NCBI GenBank assembly: GCA_035478615.1
Contig: DATIJN010000140.1
Span: 56,088 to 120,087, forward strand
Direction: 5' to 3'
Source of the DNA: Candidatus Saccharimonadales bacterium
GTDB lineage: Bacteria; Babelota; Babeliae; Babelales; Chromulinivoraceae
Length of the DNA stretch: 64,000 nucleotides
The notes under the pieces were generated by a model that worked only from the letters and a program-made list of their open reading frames with translations, was not told where the DNA came from and ran no database searches. Within the stretch, counting starts at the first letter, position 1, and every line of letters starts with the position of its first letter. Position numbers and translations under genes: made by a program. Positions 31,824 to 45,928 of the stretch are shown here, piece by piece.

Positions 31824-34592
31824 TCATTCAAATTGTAATTCTACACCATCACTGGTTTGTCTATAACCATAAATTTTTCGTTTATTTGAATGTATATCCT
31901 CGTGACATTTTTCACACAATACAACCAAGTTGTGTTTAACATTTTTATCAAATGGAATTTGATTCATTTTTTTAAATTCAGCTTGATGTGTGATATGATG
32001 CGTGATTAAGTTTTTAGTTGTTTGACAAATGGCACAATGGGTCATAACCACATCCGCATTAAAATGACTTTGTTTGAATTCTGTATTTTTATTTTTATTT
32101 AAAATAATATCACGGACTTGATAAGCATCTTGAATATAGCCAGGATCTAATCCTAAGAAACTAGCAATTTCTATACCGTATAAATTTGGTGATGGACCAT
32201 CCTTCAATTGACGTTCGTAAATCATTTTATGTTGTTCAATCGTCACTGCGATATGATTAATTTTAACATTTTTACATAATTTAATAATGTCAAGATGAAT
32301 TAAATCATGAAGATGTGACATCAGTATAAACGACGCGCGCGAATTTGATAAATATTTAACTAATGCTGCAATCAACCCAACTTGAGACGGGTATTCAGTA
32401 CCATTAGATAATTCATCACCGATGATTAACGCCGACGGGTCGGCAAAGGTCATAAATTCTTTCATTTTCAAAACTTCATTAATAAATAGGGATTTTTCTG
32501 CATAAATATCGTCACCACCGATCATCTTAATACCAATTTTTTTATAAATGCCATAGACAAAAGATTCGGCAGCGACATACATGCCCGCTTGTGCCATGAA
32601 AACACCAATACCAACTGATCTGCAAAATGTGCTTTTTCCAGCACCATTCACTGAAAAACACAACAATCCATCCACATCATCACCCAAATGACAATCATTC
32701 GGTATAAATTGAACATTGGTATTCACTTTCTCAACAATGGGATGTCTTAATTGTTTAGCATTGATAAATGATTTATCAACATTTTTTATAATGGGTTTGC
32801 AATATTTTTCTTCAACAGCCGTTTTAGCGTTACTTTTAATCACGTCAATGATATTGACATAGTGAACGATATCGTGAAACAACGTGTTATAAGTTGTTGA
32901 TAACTCATTTAACATTTGTAAATAGTAATTTTTAGTTAATAGGTTGATTTGATGTTGTGACTCGACAATTTTTTCCGAAATTTGTCTAATTTCTAAGCTA
33001 GACATTTTATAACCACTAGACTTACCAGTAAACTCTAAATTGGGATACAATTTTTGTAAAATTTTACGCTGCGCTTCCGTGATATGATATTGATAAATAC
33101 CGCTCGCTAGTGTTTTCGTTCCTTTTGATATATCTAATTTTAACGGTTCTGATTTACCAACAGCGTTGGCATAAATTTTAGCTAACTCATCCAATTTTTG
33201 ATGTAATTGGTTATTGTTGTCATACAACACATCTAAATCTACATATTGATTGCGATTAAATAAGGGCTTTATATAATCGTCATCCATATGAAATGCATTT
33301 GTCATGATGATTTTTGTTGTCAAATAAGTATAAAATGCTTGACATTGATTTATGATATCATCATGTAAATCATGAATGTTATATTTCTTTGATAAATGCA
33401 TTAATTTGATAATATGATCATAACTTTGTTCAAGATATTGACATTCACATGGATTTAACGTGTTTATATGAATTTTACGATGTAACTTTTCGATATTGAG
33501 AATGTGATTTAATACATTTTCAAATTCTTGATATACCGGTATCATCAATTCAATGTGTTGATATGATTTATTTATTGTATTTAAATCTGTACTTGGATTA
33601 AGTAATAATTGTTTTAAATAACCTTTACCACCAATGGTACTGGTATTGTTGATGATATTAAATAACGAATATCGATGCTTATCAATTAAATTGAGTTGCT
33701 CGATACAATTTTCAGATAATATAACAACATTGTTATTAGTCTTGATATGTGGTGGCGATAAACATAATAAAAAAGATGGATTAAATTCATTGATAAATTT
33801 TAACAACAAAACATAACAAATGATGGTTGATGGATACTTACCCAATCCTATATATTCAATAGCGGACAACATTTTGCTAGGAAAAATGTCAGATAGAAAT
33901 AAATTTTGAAATTGAATTTTTTTATAATCAGATGGTACTAAATTAAGGCGTAAATGATAAAGTTGATTAGTGAATTTAAGTTTATGAGCCAATTCGGATG
34001 GATCATCAATACATCCATCTGTATAAATGACAATTTGTTTTGGATCAATTTTTTCAACATAACTTATCATATTATGATAAGTCTTATTATTGTTGATATA
34101 ACAAATACTTTTTCCTGTTGATGATTCATAAGTACATATTTCTACATTATCAATAACATGTTTATCAAATTCAATGTATAAACATAAAATGATGTGATTA
34201 TCAATACATGTATCATCATCTTCAATGTCTGTTGCGCCAGAAATGATTTGTTTAAACACACGGGTTTTTCCTTTTGACTTTTTTACACCGCCATCTTGTT
34301 CCTGATCATAAACAACCACAATATAATTAGAATTGATCAGTTCTTTGGTATATTTTTTTAAACTATTGATCGGATAACCACCCGTATAAACATGAGTATC
34401 TTTAATACGTCTAAATGAAATACCCATCTGATCATAACAAATTTTTTTCATACGTTCTTTTGTTCCGTATAGTTGATAAAATCCACCCAATTGATAAAAT
34501 AGGGCTACCTTATCACCGTATTTATCAATATATTCTTCATCCAGTTTTAAATAATGATTGATGTATTCGTGATTGTTTTCATCATCGTCCAT
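31824..34592 (-). CDS. mutS7: MutS7-type DNA mismatch repair ATPase with C-terminal HNH endonuclease
   Basis: Walker A SVNGAGKSTFCRS, IIGDELSNGTE (DE box), MSHLHDL, then CAICQ...HHITH...NLVVLCEKCHEDIH (HNH). Confidence 0.85.
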   Translation of the reverse strand: MDDDENNHEYINHYLKLDEEYIDKYGDKVALFYQLGGFYQLYGTKERMKKICYDQMGISFRRIKDTHVYTGGYPINSLKKYTKELINSNYIVVVYDQEQDGGVKKSKGKTRVFKQIISGATDIEDDDTCIDNHIILCLYIEFDKHVIDNVEICTYESSTGKSICYINNNKTYHNMISYVEKIDPKQIVIYTDGCIDDPSELAHKLKFTNQLYHLRLNLVPSDYKKIQFQNLFLSDIFPSKMLSAIEYIGLGKYPSTIICYVLLLKFINEFNPSFLLCLSPPHIKTNNNVVILSENCIEQLNLIDKHRYSLFNIINNTSTIGGKGYLKQLLLNPSTDLNTINKSYQHIELMIPVYQEFENVLNHILNIEKLHRKIHINTLNPCECQYLEQSYDHIIKLMHLSKKYNIHDLHDDIINQCQAFYTYLTTKIIMTNAFHMDDDYIKPLFNRNQYVDLDVLYDNNNQLHQKLDELAKIYANAVGKSEPLKLDISKGTKTLASGIYQYHITEAQRKILQKLYPNLEFTGKSSGYKMSSLEIRQISEKIVESQHQINLLTKNYYLQMLNELSTTYNTLFHDIVHYVNIIDVIKSNAKTAVEEKYCKPIIKNVDKSFINAKQLRHPIVEKVNTNVQFIPNDCHLGDDVDGLLCFSVNGAGKSTFCRSVGIGVFMAQAGMYVAAESFVYGIYKKIGIKMIGGDDIYAEKSLFINEVLKMKEFMTFADPSALIIGDELSNGTEYPSQVGLIAALVKYLSNSRASFILMSHLHDLIHLDIIKLCKNVKINHIAVTIEQHKMIYERQLKDGPSPNLYGIEIASFLGLDPGYIQDAYQVRDIILNKNKNTEFKQSHFNADVVMTHCAICQTTKNLITHHITHQAEFKKMNQIPFDKNVKHNLVVLCEKCHEDIHSNKRKIYGYRQTSDGVELQFE

Positions 34593-36521: not shown

Positions 36522-37619
36522 TTAATCAATATAGTAAATTTCCGGATCATTCGATATTTCGCACATCATACGCCACAAACGGTGATGATTTTGTAACGAA
36601 TCATTATTTTCAGCAATTTTAAATTCATCCATATCACATATATGTCCAACAAGTTGTAAATGCCGCCACAAACGATACTGTGTACCTAAACTACTAATAC
36701 GCCCGCGCACATCAAATGGTATTTTGTAGAAACTTTTTTGTGTCATTTGATAATGCCTTAATATCGTGTCTTTGAGATTTGTTAAATCGGGTAACTTCCA
36801 ATCCCAATAAATATGGCCAATCAGGTTGACATCTTCATAATAACTGGCATATCCAATATGTGATAATGCTTGACAAAGCATTTCTTTATTGGTATTTCCT
36901 TTTTTTCCTTTATCGTTGTATGGCATGGATTTAATATCATTTGATGTCGGTTTACCGCGTTGTTTGAAATACGTATCCAACTTTTGATAAATGATGGTTG
37001 GCGGGTTGTGTTGTAAACCTTGATACCTTAGTAATGCTTTAACAAAATTATCCATGTCATTTTCAGTATTCATATTTTGAATCTTTTGCCCCTCATTTGA
37101 TTTTGTTGTATTTAATAATTGATGTTCATTTAAACAATGTGGACATTTAATCATACCATTGGCAACATTGATTTGATAATCCAATGGTTTTTTACAATTG
37201 ACACAACAATCATGAACATTCATTTGCCGCGTAATATGTATCGTGTAATATTGTTTTGCCATTTTTAAATATTGATCAATTACTTTTAATGTCGATTCAT
37301 TATTAAATTTTAACATCCGATACTGTTCGATAAGTGGTTGTGATAATTGTAAATAATCATGAAGTTTTGTTAATTTGTTCACTCGGTCAATCTCTGCTTC
37401 AATCGATTGAATTTCAGCCAATGTTTCTTTTTTGGCATTAAATGTTTGTGGTTTTTGTTGTAATAACTTTAACATGTCTAATTTATCTGTTAAGGATGGT
37501 AATAGTTGCTTTTCGTTTGATAATGCTTTGGTAATAATGTCGTGTACCAAAGTGATATCATAATCATCAGTATACGTACATACAATCTTACTGATGAGAT
37601 TGTCTTGTTTTTTTGACAT
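36522..37619 (-). CDS. VLTF3-like (poxvirus A2L-type) late transcription factor
   Basis: Central zinc ribbon CVNCKKPL...IKCPHCLNEH and a conserved C-half (YWDWKLP, RLWRHLQLVGH). Track start 37631 is TTG; ATG is at 37619. Confidence 0.55.
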   Translation of the reverse strand: MSKKQDNLISKIVCTYTDDYDITLVHDIITKALSNEKQLLPSLTDKLDMLKLLQQKPQTFNAKKETLAEIQSIEAEIDRVNKLTKLHDYLQLSQPLIEQYRMLKFNNESTLKVIDQYLKMAKQYYTIHITRQMNVHDCCVNCKKPLDYQINVANGMIKCPHCLNEHQLLNTTKSNEGQKIQNMNTENDMDNFVKALLRYQGLQHNPPTIIYQKLDTYFKQRGKPTSNDIKSMPYNDKGKKGNTNKEMLCQALSHIGYASYYEDVNLIGHIYWDWKLPDLTNLKDTILRHYQMTQKSFYKIPFDVRGRISSLGTQYRLWRHLQLVGHICDMDEFKIAENNDSLQNHHRLWRMMCEISNDPEIYYID

Positions 37620-37701
37620 TTTTTTTAACAATGATTTTAATATTTTTAACTTGTTTGATTATGACATAACCGTTTAACGCGCTATTTGCTGTATATTAAT
37701 A

Positions 37702-39228: not shown

Positions 39229-39594
39229 TTAATCCGATTCAGAGCACGATTTGCTACAATGTTCTTCATTGACATTAGCATATTGAGAATATAAATGAAG
39301 AGCCATGTTCCATTCCATATGTGGTTTGTTGGTGCGATAATTCACTTGGTTATGAAATTTCCAAGTCCAAATAAACATACCCAATTTGTCATTTTTAAAA
39401 TCTTTTAACGGATGGTTTTTAATATATTCTAAGCTGTGTTTTTTACATACATCACAAGGAAAGTAATCAATGATTACTTTCAATGTTTTAATAAACGCAT
39501 CTTGTTGTTTATTCGTTTTAGCATGAAATGCTAATGTATGTATCACATTCCATGTACCAGGTCCAATATACTGTGGATTATTAGTATTACTCAT
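39229..39594 (-). CDS. Erv1/ALR-family sulfhydryl oxidase (poxvirus E10R-like)
   Basis: GPGTWNVIHTLAFH...YFPCDVCKKHSLEYI (CxxC redox motif in the Erv1 helix context). Confidence 0.7.
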   Translation of the reverse strand: MSNTNNPQYIGPGTWNVIHTLAFHAKTNKQQDAFIKTLKVIIDYFPCDVCKKHSLEYIKNHPLKDFKNDKLGMFIWTWKFHNQVNYRTNKPHMEWNMALHLYSQYANVNEEHCSKSCSESD

Positions 39595-42583: not shown

Positions 42584-43231
42584 TTATATATTCATCATAA
42601 TACAAAATCCTTCAATCTGACACACCACATCAGCTAAATCATCTTTTTTTTTATTTTTTTTCAATAACGATAATGTATACTCGTCGTTTCGTTTTAACGA
42701 AAGTTCCGTTGCTTTTTCAACCGCCCATTTTTTCAATTCATTTTTATTACATTTCGGCGCGCCGAGCATTTTACCTTTTACTTTTGCATCTAATTCAATG
42801 ATTGACGGTAATAAGGGTAAATCTTTTAATGTTAATAAAAAATAACTTAAAATATGCTGAGCTACTCGCGTCGCTTGATAATTGGTTGGTAATTGTTTTT
42901 CAATCAATACGTAATGCGTACTAGCATAATACTCATGCAAATTATTTAATATATCATTAATATTATTATACATGTTATTTGCTTCAGCATGATCTATTGT
43001 TTTCATTTCCCATGGGGAAAATTTACCCGAGTATAAACAGACAACATTGTCACCTGTACGTTGTTCGACACGGATGGCTAAATTTTTAATTGCTGGATCG
43101 ATAGATATGAATTGTATTAAATCAGACTCCCAACATCGTTTTTTAATATCTGTGGTATGGGGATAATATAATGTGTATAAACTTTTACTAGGTTGTTGCG
43201 TTTTGGGAACTTGTAATCCATAATATGACAT
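42584..43231 (-). CDS. Holliday junction resolvase, poxvirus A22/RuvC-like
   Basis: FISIDPAIKNLAIRVE (first catalytic Asp strand), VLIEKQLP, KKDDLADVVCQIEGF. Confidence 0.65.
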   Translation of the reverse strand: MSYYGLQVPKTQQPSKSLYTLYYPHTTDIKKRCWESDLIQFISIDPAIKNLAIRVEQRTGDNVVCLYSGKFSPWEMKTIDHAEANNMYNNINDILNNLHEYYASTHYVLIEKQLPTNYQATRVAQHILSYFLLTLKDLPLLPSIIELDAKVKGKMLGAPKCNKNELKKWAVEKATELSLKRNDEYTLSLLKKNKKKDDLADVVCQIEGFCIMMNI

Positions 43232-43250: not shown

Positions 43251-43748
43251 ATGATGTCATTTTACCAAAATAAAATTAAAATGTTGTATCATGATCTATA
43301 TCGTAAAATTCTGTTATATTGTGATATAAATACCATTATGTCCTTTTATCTAACATCAAAAAAAGACCATTTTGATAAAGCATTTTGGTTACAAAAAATA
43401 ATACATGATGATCTATTCACAATCAATAATCAAATATGTATCAATGAATATCGTAAAATAAATCGCTGCCAAGAAATAGTAAATAAATATATCATGCAAA
43501 ATAAAACATTGACTATCAATAACAATAAAATTAAATCTAGCTTATTACCATATCATATCAAAATATTATGTGGTATATATAATCATTCCGCATACAGCTA
43601 TCATGATGATTATGATATTACAATAAATATAAATACATCTGATTATTATATATGTTATATAAAAGATAGATTTAACTGTCATGGTTTAACAACAAAAGCA
43701 ACAAAATTATTATTGCAATATCTAATCTATTTTAATCTAATTAAATAA
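43251..43748 (+). CDS. F-box-like N-terminal domain protein
   Basis: LYHDLYRKILLYCDINTIMSFYLTSKKDHFDKAFW. Confidence 0.5.
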   Translation: MMSFYQNKIKMLYHDLYRKILLYCDINTIMSFYLTSKKDHFDKAFWLQKIIHDDLFTINNQICINEYRKINRCQEIVNKYIMQNKTLTINNNKIKSSLLPYHIKILCGIYNHSAYSYHDDYDITININTSDYYICYIKDRFNCHGLTTKATKLLLQYLIYFNLIK

Positions 43749-43765
43749 TTTTGTATTATAATAAA

Positions 43766-45259
43766 ATGTTTAAACAAGATGATATAAAAAAAATAGAATA
43801 TGACCATATTGAATATCAAATACGATTCAACGACATGAATCGTACCCAATTTCAACACATGATAAAACATATTCAAAATCCTAACACGACCATATCAACC
43901 AATTATTACGATGTTAAAAATAATATTAAAAAAACCTATTTATTAACTGAACAAAATGAAGTAGAACATGAAACAATTCACTTTTATTGTAAAAAAACAA
44001 TACATACTATAAATCACCCCGATTATCCAATTTCTTTGTTGGTTCAACAAAATCAACCCACGATGGAAACGGATGATTTATCGTTAACGATAAATAAAGA
44101 TAAATTAAATTATCATTATATCATCAATGATGATATTACCTTAATATTATCTGAAACGACAATGGATATGATGACCACGTATCATATGAAAATACAATTT
44201 AAAAACACAGATTCATTAACTATTGTGAATGAAATGATTGTCAATCTATTGATGATGATGAATAATACAGAAGTATTGTATACAGAACATGAGCGGTTAT
44301 CTATGATTCATGATTGTTGCCATGCATTAAAAATACCATTATCTAACGATTTAGACAATGTATTTGTCAAATTACAACACATCAAATTAACTGATATCAA
44401 TCAGTTAACTGGTACATACGTTGTATCAAACAAAGCCAAAGGTACTCGTACATTACTTATATTTCATCATACAGGTATTTGGCTCGTTAAACCTAAACAA
44501 CCTTATCATTATAATTTGTTGTTAAAATATGATGATAATCATCTTTACCGTTATTTGATTAATTCTTGGCAATTAACCATTTTTGATGGCGATATCATAA
44601 AACCGTTAAACAAAACAGATTATGAATTTAACTACCGATATTGGTATTTAGCACATGATTGTTTAGTATTTAATCATCATGACATACGACATATGACATA
44701 CGATAAACGTATTGATTATGCTAAAACATGTCAAAAATTAATCACTTGGTATATTGAAGATGAATTTTTATGTTTTAGTTTAAAATCAACGCGTGGATTC
44801 ATTGCTGGAGATGCTGATATGGTTGATAAAATCAAATACATTATGACGATAGGCGAGGTGTTGAATTATGAACATACAGGTCTTGTTTTTACACCAAATA
44901 GTCAATATGATAATAATAAAACATATAAATTATATTACCCATCCCAAATTACTATTGATTTTGCTATCTATGATTCGGGAAATCCGAATCAGTTGAAATT
45001 ATACGTTTATGATCAAGAAAAAATGCAAGATGTGGAGTTTGTTGGTACACAACAACTCCCGTTTGACGAATCAATGATTTTACACTCATCTTTGATGCCT
45101 TATTATAATAATAATAAAATGATTGCTGAATGCCGCTGGGATCAAGTTTTAAACAAAATGGTATTTGTCAAAATAAGATCAGATAAATATGAACCAGATG
45201 ATATTAGATTAGTGATTGAAAATTGGCAAAATATCAATGATCCGATTATTGATTGTTAA
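43766..45259 (+). CDS. Degenerate paralogue of the capping-enzyme triphosphatase-guanylyltransferase module
   Basis: Collinear with residues 1-500 of ORF 51794-56551 (VVSNKAKGTRTLLIFHHTGIWLV vs VIAHKADGERHYLIYNPIGIWLV; ITIDFAIY..LKLYVYD vs ITIDFEIV..INLYVFD; IENWQNINDPI vs ESNWHDIHDPI), but catalytic residues are replaced. Track start 43751 is TTG; ATG is at 43766. Confidence 0.6.
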   Translation: MFKQDDIKKIEYDHIEYQIRFNDMNRTQFQHMIKHIQNPNTTISTNYYDVKNNIKKTYLLTEQNEVEHETIHFYCKKTIHTINHPDYPISLLVQQNQPTMETDDLSLTINKDKLNYHYIINDDITLILSETTMDMMTTYHMKIQFKNTDSLTIVNEMIVNLLMMMNNTEVLYTEHERLSMIHDCCHALKIPLSNDLDNVFVKLQHIKLTDINQLTGTYVVSNKAKGTRTLLIFHHTGIWLVKPKQPYHYNLLLKYDDNHLYRYLINSWQLTIFDGDIIKPLNKTDYEFNYRYWYLAHDCLVFNHHDIRHMTYDKRIDYAKTCQKLITWYIEDEFLCFSLKSTRGFIAGDADMVDKIKYIMTIGEVLNYEHTGLVFTPNSQYDNNKTYKLYYPSQITIDFAIYDSGNPNQLKLYVYDQEKMQDVEFVGTQQLPFDESMILHSSLMPYYNNNKMIAECRWDQVLNKMVFVKIRSDKYEPDDIRLVIENWQNINDPIIDC

Positions 45260-45271
45260 AATAAATAGTAT

Positions 45272-45279
45272 AAAATTGA
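45272..45279 (+). promoter_or_regulatory. AAAATTGA (Mimivirus early-promoter-type octamer) upstream of the GT25 gene
   Basis: Exact octamer ending 20 nt before the ATG at 45299. Chance matches are expected in DNA this AT-rich. Confidence 0.4.
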
Positions 45280-45298: not shown

Positions 45299-45928
45299 AT
45301 GGAATGGCATGCAAAAATTGACAAATTGATATTTATCAATCTGGATTACCGTACTGATCGATATAATGAATTACTACAACAATTACACAACATTTCTTTT
45401 CCACAAGAAAAAATAATGCGTTTTTCAGCTTTACAAGGTAGTAGTGGTCCCGTTGGTTGTTGTTTAAGTCACGCCGCTGTATTAAAAAAAGCCCATGAGA
45501 TGAATTTAAATAATGTTTTAATTTTAGAAGATGATTGTAACTTTATTGAAGATGTTGATAATATTAATAAAACGATGAATTATTTTTTTAATACCATTGC
45601 ACCACTCGGATGGGATGCTTTTTTATTTCATTGTGGTAATATAAATATTGATCGTATCGATGATATCATGAATCGATGTTTATCGAGTTCTAACGCGGTT
45701 GCTTATTTAGTCACAAATAAAATCATGTTAGATTTAGCCAATTTAATTCAAGAAGGTGCTGAATTATTACATCAAACTGGTGCACATTGGCTTTATCAAA
45801 ATGATGTGGTATGGGATAAACAAATGTCTGTGAGTCAATGGTACTCACCGAATGAATCACTTTGTTATCAGAGACCAAGTTATAGCGATTTATCTGAAGA
45901 AGTTGTTGATCATCGTTACCCAGTATAA
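45299..45928 (+). CDS. Glycosyltransferase family 25-like
   Basis: IDKLIFINLDYRTDRYNEL, GCCLSHAAVLKKA, VLILEDDCNF. An exact AAAATTGA lies at 45272-45279. Confidence 0.65.
   Translation: MEWHAKIDKLIFINLDYRTDRYNELLQQLHNISFPQEKIMRFSALQGSSGPVGCCLSHAAVLKKAHEMNLNNVLILEDDCNFIEDVDNINKTMNYFFNTIAPLGWDAFLFHCGNINIDRIDDIMNRCLSSSNAVAYLVTNKIMLDLANLIQEGAELLHQTGAHWLYQNDVVWDKQMSVSQWYSPNESLCYQRPSYSDLSEEVVDHRYPV

Follow-up and report, generated by a model that had tools for sequence, protein, structure and literature searches.

The window analysed here, a stretch of 64,000 nucleotides from a contig of an uncultured giant virus that is now filed as a bacterial genome bin, carries two genes of the capping-enzyme type (Table 1). 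The longer one encodes a catalytically intact enzyme with eighteen orthologues of 1388–1952 aa. The shorter one, 6.5 kb away, is an ORF whose product is identical to NCBI HSW76986.1 and whose likely start is the ATG at 43766, since Met1 is invariant in a 15-sequence alignment of the family. In this 497-aa paralogue a nucleotidyltransferase domain is followed by an OB domain, the order found in mRNA guanylyltransferases (GTases), and the C-terminus comes right after the OB domain, with no methyltransferase domain. PF01331 passes the Pfam cutoff (31 vs 29.6 bits), and comparison with PDB profiles gave matches to the human and mouse GTases with E about 1e-12.

Table 1. Positions in the window of the 497-aa paralogue, its domains and motifs, and the 1585-aa capping enzyme.
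Feature	Coordinates	Strand	Remarks
Paralogue ORF	43766..45259	+	Complete, 497 aa plus stop
Triphosphatase-like domain (triphosphate-tunnel beta-barrel), aa 1–165	43766..44260	+	Profile-profile comparison, model strands, fold matches
TPase motif A remnant HIEYQIRF	43805..43828	+	Canonical xxExExKF; E16 retained, second Glu is Gln18
Basic tunnel residues K55 and K56 (NIKKT), K76, K111 and K113 (INKDKLN)	43922..44110	+	Cet1 R458 equivalent is Asn115
TPase motif C remnant YHMKIQF	44180..44200	+	Canonical YExExE; three Glu gone (H140, K142, Q144)
GTase-like nucleotidyltransferase domain, ~aa 200–400	44363..44965	+	Pfam PF01331 at aa 213–381, PDB profile, folds
Motif I K-A-K-G	44432..44443	+	Lys nucleophile K223 and Gly retained, Asp replaced by Lys225
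Motif III F-D-G-D	44582..44593	+	Asp-Gly retained; ribose-contacting Glu is Asp, variable across the family
Motif IV H-T-G-L-V-F	44873..44890	+	Essential Asp replaced by Thr371
Motif V YKLYYPSQITIDF	44924..44962	+	First Lys K388 retained, second Lys is Tyr390
OB-fold domain, aa 401–497, with C-terminal Cys	44966..45256	+	Pfam PF03919 at 22 bits (below cutoff), hhalign
Motif VI KIRSDK, aa 469–474	45170..45187	+	Intact, inside the OB-fold domain
Capping enzyme, 1585 aa	51794..56551	-	Catalytically intact; TPase, GTase, N7-methyltransferase, then further domains

An earlier note on this DNA had described the ORF as collinear with residues 1–500 of the capping enzyme and had quoted peptides from it (HIEYQIRF, YHMKIQF, KAKG, HTGLVF and YKLYYPSQITIDF), all of which, like the ORF itself, lie where it had placed them. 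The collinearity was confirmed by BLASTP against the 1585-aa enzyme (95.9 bits, E=1e-24 and 27% identity, aa 198–495 vs aa 208–498) and, over the full length, by comparison of the family profile with capping-enzyme aa 1–500 (99.9% probability, E=1.5e-32, 1–497 on 1–499). The triphosphatase (TPase) part taken alone also showed significant similarity to the canonical N-terminal domain in a profile-profile comparison over 193 columns (99.8%, E=1e-28). Compared with the trifunctional capping enzyme of giant viruses (mimivirus R382 type), the paralogue is homologous over the whole TPase–GTase module, with identical domain order, but it is without the methyltransferase; the glutamates of motifs A and C, the aspartates of motifs I and IV and the second lysine of motif V are replaced, and two loops of the canonical enzymes are deleted, GGIVGN before motif I and PLxxRxL between motifs IV and V.

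The AlphaFold model of the paralogue (pLDDT 77, pTM 0.70) has a tunnel part of eight strands within aa 15–145, followed by a helix, and in this predicted structure the fold of both domains is retained. The best PDB match of the model was vaccinia D1 (4cke), which was aligned over both domains (~570 aligned columns, E=2.5e-15, identity ~11%). D1 is catalytically active and has a methyltransferase, whereas the paralogue has no methyltransferase and is predicted to be inactive. The model also matched the crystal structure of the mimivirus TPase (2qy2, E=7e-7), the PBCV-1, yeast and human GTases (including 1ckm, 3s24 and 1p16) and the vaccinia polymerase complexes 8p0j, 6rie and 6rfl. Paralogy with the TPase–GTase module is therefore borne out by BLASTP, by the profile comparisons and by the fold matches.

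A residue census was carried out on 22 paralogues and 146 canonical enzymes, with Cet1 numbering cross-checked. A phmmer search of PDB with the N-terminus of the window capping enzyme gave no matches, and Cet1 was reached with a 14-sequence profile; K409, E433, R454, K456 and R458 were mapped directly, and the equivalence of R393, a region misplaced in that alignment, comes from spacing only. Cet1 is inactivated by a single mutation at any of its three metal ligands, and so is the mimivirus enzyme (PMC10201420). The metal-ligand set (Cet1 E305, E307 and E496) is incomplete in the window protein (E16 and Q18; H140, K142 and Q144), and the E496 equivalent is retained in none of the 22 paralogues, 15 of which have a lysine there. 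The E433 equivalent survives in 3/22, and fewer tunnel glutamates are left in the window copy than in most of its relatives. The basic residues of the tunnel are largely kept, mostly as Lys rather than Arg, at the R454 equivalent in 20/22 and at the proposed R393 equivalent (spacing only) in 21/22. In the window protein the gamma-phosphate-binding sites corresponding to Cet1 R393 (matched by spacing), K409, K456 and R458 hold K55, K76, K113 and Asn115, respectively, and K111, the R454 equivalent, is a further basic residue near these sites.

A similar division runs through the GTase-like domain. In motif I, which reads K223-A-K225-G-T-R in the window protein and not KxDGxR, the Lys nucleophile and the Gly are present in all 22 paralogues, an Arg or Lys follows in 21/22, and the Asp has become Lys in 21/22. 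The Glu position of motif III, occupied by Glu in 145/146 canonical enzymes, holds Glu in ten paralogues, Asp in six and other residues in six, and the Asp of motif IV, found in 146/146 canonical enzymes, is replaced by Asn (12), Thr (2), Ser (1) or Glu (1) and retained in six. Motif V has kept its first Lys in 19/22 paralogues and its second in none (145/146 in canonical enzymes), the replacements being mostly uncharged and largely hydrophobic; the window protein has T371-G in motif IV and K388-L-Y390 in motif V. The Arg and Lys of motif VI (RxDK) are each retained in 20/21, and similar residues of the paralogue occupy the positions in motifs IIIa and IV with which Pce1, the fission-yeast GTase, stacks on the guanine base. 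The decay is selective, with the loss falling on the metal and transition-state residues; what has been kept is the Lys nucleophile, motif VI and the basic residues of the tunnel. The earlier statement that every catalytic signature is altered goes too far: K223, G226 and R228 of motif I, D274 and G275 of motif III, K388 of motif V and R471, D473 and K474 of motif VI are intact. No intact KxDG or ExE/ExExE set occurs elsewhere in the protein, and the loss of catalytic residues extends over the 22 family members rather than being private to the window genome.

The family consists of 22 full-length metagenomic proteins with conserved blocks, the relatives standing at 34–45% identity. When 1.84 billion representatives were searched, a clear gap separated its core, scoring 446–653 bits, from the canonical enzymes, none of which exceeded 265 bits, and its members formed a monophyletic group with a bootstrap of 100/100. 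Outside the classical motifs the family has conserved blocks of its own: LYT (aa 171–173), YEFNYxYW, LNYxH and a C-terminal Cys. The paralogue and an active enzyme of ~1500 aa occur together on one contig in the window and in one assembly each in GCA_040384245.1, GCA_034680565.1 and ERZ27297441. A scan of IMG/VR returned canonical capping enzymes only (22–27% identity) and no further family member, and a metagenome scan added a single locus (P0016), so that the family is rare. A MutS7 search gave no named relative by which the lineage could be placed in a virus family.

Retention under purifying selection, as proposed earlier, is supported by the 22 diverged members and by a dN/dS of 0.12 for the closest pair, P0010 and P0017 (0.19 in the TPase part and 0.08 in the GTase part), values that are approximate since dS is ~1.1, near saturation. 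Between the window and its relatives, the only pairs to which the rate comparison applies as same-assembly gene pairs are unreliable, identity was 37–39% for the paralogue and 43–48% for the active module; the paralogue has diverged only slightly faster. In one assembly pair the paralogue was 76% identical and the active module 55%, which suggests mixed strains.

Eight longer relatives have C-terminal tails that match only aa 605–744 of the N7-methyltransferase (E down to 1.5e-21) and gave no Pfam methyltransferase match. The early-branching relatives carry a relic of the C-terminal half of the N7-methyltransferase. On the stem of the family KxDG became KxKG and three features disappeared: the SAM-binding half of the methyltransferase, the metal-ligand Glu of the triphosphatase tunnel and the second motif V Lys. 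Later branches, that of the window protein among them, went on to lose what was left of the methyltransferase as well as the Asp of motif IV and further glutamates of the tunnel. The duplication is old and lineage-wide, since the family is monophyletic (100% bootstrap) and its early branches have the relic methyltransferase half, and the neighbouring gene is not its source. A recent tandem or local duplicate was considered and rejected, as the family profile scores other canonical enzymes at up to 265 bits and the clade of the window enzyme (P0139, P0148) at ~150 bits. A neighbour-joining tree placed the paralogue clade as sister to the ~1500-aa enzymes of the lineage with a bootstrap of only 30%, a placement that may be due to long-branch attraction. 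The picture of a pseudoenzyme retained after duplication, given in the earlier note, thus stands as regards paralogy, residue loss and purifying selection; the duplication is older and the decay more partial than it had implied, and inactivity is predicted from the residues.

The paralogue is probably a pseudoenzyme that selection has maintained and that binds RNA 5' ends or guanine nucleotides but catalyses no reaction on them. Hydrolysis of the RNA 5' triphosphate and GMP transfer would both be abolished, and the two disabled pockets would serve to bind a guanine nucleotide or the 5' end of an RNA, whether triphosphate or cap. The protein may then be a partner, itself non-catalytic, of the machinery for viral transcription and capping, with capping itself presumably performed by the fully intact 1585-aa enzyme. 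The link to transcription is suggested by analogy and by loose synteny with VLTF3 and Evr1/Alr. The geometry of the pockets and the charge of the tunnel are predictions from the alignment. The pattern of selective decay favours, among the roles suggested previously, that of a cap- or RNA-end-binding factor over a purely structural one. A narrower and more tentative version would make the protein a specialised reader of RNA 5' ends, free of catalysis, in which a metal-free, Lys-lined tunnel would be combined with a guanine-nucleotide or cap pocket formed with the former nucleophile Lys and motif VI. Such a reader would keep hold of nascent transcripts by their triphosphate or capped ends, pass these ends on or shield them, possibly as a subunit of the transcription apparatus or in protection from host sensors and decapping.

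Several observations could also fit a purely protein-binding subunit with no nucleotide or RNA ligand, serving as an allosteric partner or scaffold of the capping enzyme or RNA polymerase or as a structural protein of the virion, much as vaccinia D12, methyltransferase-like but inactive, activates D1. In its favour, the family-specific blocks lie outside the classical motifs, the gene in three genomes lies near those for Evr1/Alr (virion morphogenesis) and VLTF3 (late transcription), and the polymerase complexes matched by the model contain the vaccinia capping enzyme as a structural component. This explanation nevertheless gives no account of why ligand-contacting residues are conserved while metal and transition-state residues vary, and is considered unlikely. 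Among ten neighbouring ORFs a Pfam scan found no functional link (collagen, GT25, HtrL/YibB or no match), the mimivirus early motif AAAATTGA was not enriched (27 observed vs 22 expected), and none of the upstream 8-mers stood out.

Simple cap binding would not seem to require that the nucleophile Lys and motif VI be so strictly conserved. Motif VI acts in step 1, where it orients the leaving pyrophosphate, and with this motif conserved there is scope for residual or rewired catalysis. A rewired nucleotidyltransferase would still form lysyl-NMP, although the nucleotide or the acceptor might be a different one; the Lys in motif I would make up for the missing second motif V Lys, and the dead tunnel would just hold the substrate end. 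Conservation of the nucleophile, the Gly and Arg of motif I, the Asp-Gly of motif III and the R-x-D-K of motif VI in 20–22 of the 22 members agrees with this, and the fixation of Asp to Lys in 21/22 suggests a selected function rather than drift. KxKG alone is no proof of inactivity, since some active RNA ligases tolerate a non-Asp third position in motif I (KxNG in yeast Trl1, KxHG in T4 Rnl2). However, the family varies at the motif III Glu and motif IV Asp, which are otherwise invariant or nearly so, a sign that the constraint on catalysis has been relaxed. All 22 members have lost the second motif V Lys; in Pce1 both motif V lysines contact the phosphate (PMC4066402). A still active enzyme is considered improbable. 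A functionless, decaying pseudogene or annotation artefact is hardly credible: the many lost catalytic residues and the greater loss of tunnel glutamates in the window copy would fit, but the ORF is intact, 22 full-length relatives share conserved blocks, dN/dS is low and divergence is only slightly above that of the active module.

The favoured reading of a non-catalytic binding protein has precedents among known systems. In vaccinia, D1/D12 has catalysis-independent roles in transcription termination and intermediate initiation, and D12 shows that an enzyme fold can serve as an inactive partner; D12 derives from a methyltransferase fold and the paralogue from the TPase–GTase module. The m3G-cap-binding domain of snurportin-1 has a GTase-like nucleotidyltransferase fold and binds the cap non-catalytically; to our knowledge the conserved Lys nucleophile and motif VI are both absent from it. 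Snurportin-1 (3gjx) was only a weak structural match, at rank 47 among the fold matches (E=2e-6, TM about 0.25), and is without the TPase and OB parts of the paralogue. In the trypanosome RESC1–RESC2, the inactive tunnel of RESC2 holds an RNA 5' triphosphate without hydrolysing it (PMC10201420), which is the mechanism proposed for the N-terminal domain of the paralogue. These Cet1-like proteins have likewise lost the metal-ligand glutamates and retained basic residues, but they have no detectable sequence relationship to the paralogue and no fused GTase-like domain, and they belong to a cellular editing complex rather than a virus.

No description of such a capping-enzyme paralogue was found in the published literature. 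Capping enzymes belong to the core genes of giant viruses, and the usual view is of one gene with a catalytic product. The family represents a second evolutionary outcome, in which a whole duplicated capping enzyme was stripped stepwise of its methyltransferase and catalytic residues and was retained by purifying selection with the ligand-holding residues left intact. If the binding model is true, a viral case would join the few dead tunnel or GTase folds that read RNA 5' ends (RESC2, snurportin-1), and giant viruses would seem to use a hitherto unrecognised component in transcription or in the handling of mRNA; if the narrower reader model is true, the virus would encode a factor for binding 5' ends that arose from its own capping enzyme. 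In giant-virus phylogenomics, members of the paralogue family can be mistaken for a second capping-enzyme marker.

Related viruses of the Mimiviridae also have extra capping-enzyme-like genes, encoding short GTase-like second proteins of similar length, in the klosneuvirus-like Fadolivirus (A0A7D3QVR8), Gaeavirus (A0A3G5A3S7) and Yasminevirus (A0A5K0U9G8) and in ChoanoV1 (A0A5B8IGZ1) and Tetraselmis virus (A0A2P0VN36). None of the five was among the named sequence matches of the paralogue, and their structural overlap with it was partial only (query TM-score about 0.3, rmsd 15–21 Å); the short Mimiviridae GTase-like proteins are probably a separate family.

An earlier note described the 497-aa paralogue as collinear with residues 1-500 of the capping enzyme, its triphosphatase-guanylyltransferase (TPase-GTase) module, and on re-check the ORF, every quoted peptide and every nucleotide position proved correct. 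BLASTP paired aa 198-495 of the paralogue with 208-498 of the capping enzyme (95.9 bits, E = 1e-24) and left the N-terminus of the paralogue unaligned; a profile of 15 family sequences extended the alignment to the full length, 1-497 on 1-499 (probability 99.9%, E = 1.5e-32). The N-terminal 195 residues reached a probability of 85.9% against the single capping-enzyme sequence and 99.8% (E = 1e-28) once 14 canonical N-terminal domains were combined into a profile. In addition, a Pfam PF01331 match scored above its cutoff and a PDB profile search returned human and mouse guanylyltransferase (E ~1e-12). The AlphaFold model (pLDDT 77, pTM 0.70) showed eight strands and a helix in residues 1-165, with nucleotidyltransferase and OB domains after them; its top PDB match was vaccinia D1 over both domains (E = 2.5e-15, ~570 columns), with a further match to the mimivirus triphosphatase crystal structure 2qy2 (E = 7e-7). 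The collinearity is thus real, the agreement of BLASTP, profile, Pfam, PDB and model matches establishing both paralogy and fold.

Among 5.8 billion protein clusters only 15 relatives of the paralogue were found, all of them metagenomic and sharing 34-45% aa identity with it. In an exhaustive family-profile search covering 1.84 billion representatives a score gap was evident, with the core family at 446-653 bits and canonical 1000-1500-aa capping enzymes, matched end to end, at ≤265 bits; a few relatives of 589-620 aa (P0019, P0020, P0022 and P0027) scored ~220-320 bits, overlapping the best canonical scores. IMG/VR and JGI metagenome scans contributed one extra locus only. The family is distinct and rare; none of its members is from a named virus, and no description of such a capping-enzyme-derived paralogue was found in the literature. 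Neighbour-joining of 111 TPase-GTase modules placed all 22 family members in one clade and the ~1500-aa enzymes of the lineage in another, each monophyletic in 100 of 100 bootstraps; in the best tree the two clades were sisters, with a support of only 30%. One of the two branches of the family consists of short forms (423-533 aa), among them the window protein, and the other of long forms (~590-740 aa). The long-form tails gave no methyltransferase match in a Pfam scan; they match only residues 605-744 of the N7-methyltransferase of the window enzyme (E down to 1.5e-21) and lack its SAM-binding half, which indicates that the family ancestor was a full trifunctional enzyme whose methyltransferase was lost in two steps.

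Residue counts were taken from a MAFFT alignment of the 22 paralogues with 146 canonical enzymes, independent of the family profile, and Cet1 numbering was set by profile-to-PDB alignment. Canonical E146, E148 and E150 correspond to Cet1 E492, E494 and E496, R118, R120 and R122 to R454, K456 and R458, K80 to K409, E102 to E433 and, by spacing only, R67 to R393. The metal ligands of Cet1 are E305, E307 and E496, and mutating any one of them inactivates both Cet1 and the mimivirus enzyme (PMC10201420). At the E496 position no paralogue keeps Glu and 15 of 22 have Lys, while the equivalents of E305, E307 and E433 are kept in 11, 18 and 3 of 22, respectively, and that of E494 in 10 (3/15 short forms and 7/7 long forms). 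In the window paralogue E16 is the sole survivor of six acidic tunnel positions. The basic tunnel residues mostly persist, with Lys instead of Arg; the site is basic in 21/22 at the R393 position proposed by spacing, in 14/22 at K409 and in 20/22 at R454, and K113, the equivalent of Cet1 K456, is nearly invariant in the family alignment.

In the GTase-like domain, the nucleophile Lys and the motif I Gly are present in all 22 paralogues, the motif I Arg position holds Arg or Lys in 21, and the motif I Asp is replaced by Lys in 21. Motif III Asp-Gly is retained and its Glu position varies (Glu in 10, Asp in 6 and other residues in six); motif IV Asp is found in six, with Asn in 12 and Thr in the window protein. 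The first motif V Lys is kept in 19/22 and the second in none, and motif VI Arg and Lys in 20/21 each. The same residues, motif I Arg excepted, are present in 142-146 of the 146 canonical enzymes. The two motif V lysines of fission-yeast Pce1 touch the phosphate of GMP, whose base is packed between side chains of motifs IIIa and IV (PMC4066402); the corresponding positions in the paralogues, Tyr/His before Asp-Cys and Leu-Ile/Val-Phe, are still aromatic and aliphatic. Residue loss is selective: metal and transition-state residues are gone or variable, whereas the fold and the residues in contact with ligand have been preserved. Stem losses are common to all members, more are found in the short clade and most in the sub-branch of the window protein (P0001-P0003), a stepwise pattern expected if catalysis ended early. 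Almost all short paralogues also have a Cys at one of their final four positions (...PIIDC-stop at 45242-45259 (+) in the window), and a gene for the thiol oxidase Evr1/Alr lies near such a paralogue in three genomes (the window, L011 and L014); a disulfide role for this Cys is speculation.

Judged on these residues, the paralogue is probably a pseudoenzyme that descends from the capping enzyme. The simplest account is that it would bind an RNA 5' triphosphate, a cap or a guanine nucleotide without catalysis, working alongside the viral transcription and capping apparatus. Its tunnel, lysine-lined and often with Lys at a former metal-ligand position, would be unable to bind the catalytic metal, and its GTase-like pocket appears to retain the residues holding the nucleoside, ribose and beta/gamma-phosphates without two residues needed for transfer. 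Precedents exist for both halves: the inactive Cet1-like tunnel of RESC2 holds the guide RNA 5' triphosphate, and snurportin-1, among the fold matches of the paralogue, binds a cap through a GTase-like fold. The vaccinia capping enzyme, too, has a structural role in polymerase complexes (PDB 8p0j, 6rie and 6rfl, among the fold matches of the model). Less probably, the protein could be a pure protein scaffold or virion component. A rewired, still active enzyme would fit the invariant Lys, the conserved motif VI and the fixed Asp-to-Lys change; against it stand the variation at motif III Glu and motif IV Asp and the absence of the second motif V Lys from every member.

Purifying selection, for which a dN/dS comparison had been proposed in the earlier note, was borne out in the closest family pair with DNA, P0010 and P0017 (76% aa identity), with dN = 0.138, dS = 1.12 and dN/dS = 0.12 (0.19 for the TPase-like and 0.08 for the GTase-like part), values that are approximate because dS is close to saturation; pN (0.13) was far below pS (0.58). 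A decaying pseudogene is excluded. Compared with three other assemblies, the window shows 37-39% aa identity for the paralogue and 43-48% for the active TPase-GTase module, and mean root-to-tip distances are 1.17 for paralogues and 0.87 for active enzymes; in evolutionary rate the paralogue is only a little ahead of the working enzyme. A paralogue and an intact enzyme of ~1500 aa coexist on one contig in the window genome and within one assembly in GCA_040384245.1, GCA_034680565.1 and ERZ27297441.

Features of the window around the paralogue.
Feature	Position	Strand	Remark
MutS7-like gene	31824-34592	-	C-terminal nuclease-like region
VLTF3 homologue	36522-37631
Evr1/Alr homologue	39229-39594
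215-aa ORF	42584-43231	-	no Pfam match
165-aa ORF	43251-43748	+	directly upstream, ends 17 nt before paralogue ATG; no match in Pfam scan
Paralogue, 497 aa	43766-45259	+	HSW76986.1
Capping enzyme, 1585 aa	51794-56551	-

The window is AT-rich (GC 25-38%) and its 158,632-bp source contig is filed at NCBI as a 'Candidatus Saccharimonadales' genome bin. This is mis-binning, since the MutS7-like, VLTF3, Evr1/Alr, capping enzyme, collagen and FNIP repeat genes are those of a giant virus. Six relatives of the MutS7 protein share 47-61% identity with it, the next ones being at ~30%, and none of these relatives is from a named virus, placing the source in a deep, uncultured, mimivirus-like lineage. Synteny around the paralogue is loose, yet recurrent: Evr1/Alr is found ~4 kb away or closer in both the window and L011 and next to the paralogue in L014; the window and L014 also have VLTF3 in the neighbourhood. 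The 215-aa neighbour is conserved, and L011 has a 59% identical counterpart close to its paralogue. In the window, the early-promoter octamer of mimivirus, AAAATTGA, was not enriched (27 observed against 22 expected), nor did any upstream 8-mer stand out; one copy of the octamer (45272-45279) precedes the ORF at 45299 by 20 nt.

Short second proteins of 301-491 aa, annotated as capping-enzyme adenylation domain, were also seen in BFVD for Fadolivirus, Gaeavirus, Yasminevirus, ChoanoV1 and Tetraselmis virus 1, the Mimiviridae concerned including klosneuvirus-like members. Their predicted structures overlap the paralogue model only partly (query TM-score ~0.3), and they may represent additional GTase-like genes that arose independently.

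The intact enzymes of the lineage (the window enzyme at aa 235-287, P0164-P0179, P0139 and P0148) have all catalytic residues, with motif III reading [EKDIR][CATSV]-E (YECE in the window), not D-G-E, and a variable Arg position in motif I, KADGxR (R5, D6, H5, F2, T1). Among 127 giant-virus enzymes outside the lineage, motif I Arg is present in 126 and motif III Gly in 123, and the degenerate paralogues retain these ancestral residues (Arg/Lys in 21/22 and Gly in 22/22). In most canonical capping enzymes of giant viruses the methyltransferase is followed by an OTU-protease-like block, GDGxCFxH; the Cys and His of this block are lost in the lineage, where it reads NDKNNSFLS in the window enzyme (~aa 795-815) and IGC-SDLLD in three orthologues. 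Two more methyltransferase-like regions follow this block in the 1585-aa enzyme, at aa 1079-1236 and ~1400-1585.
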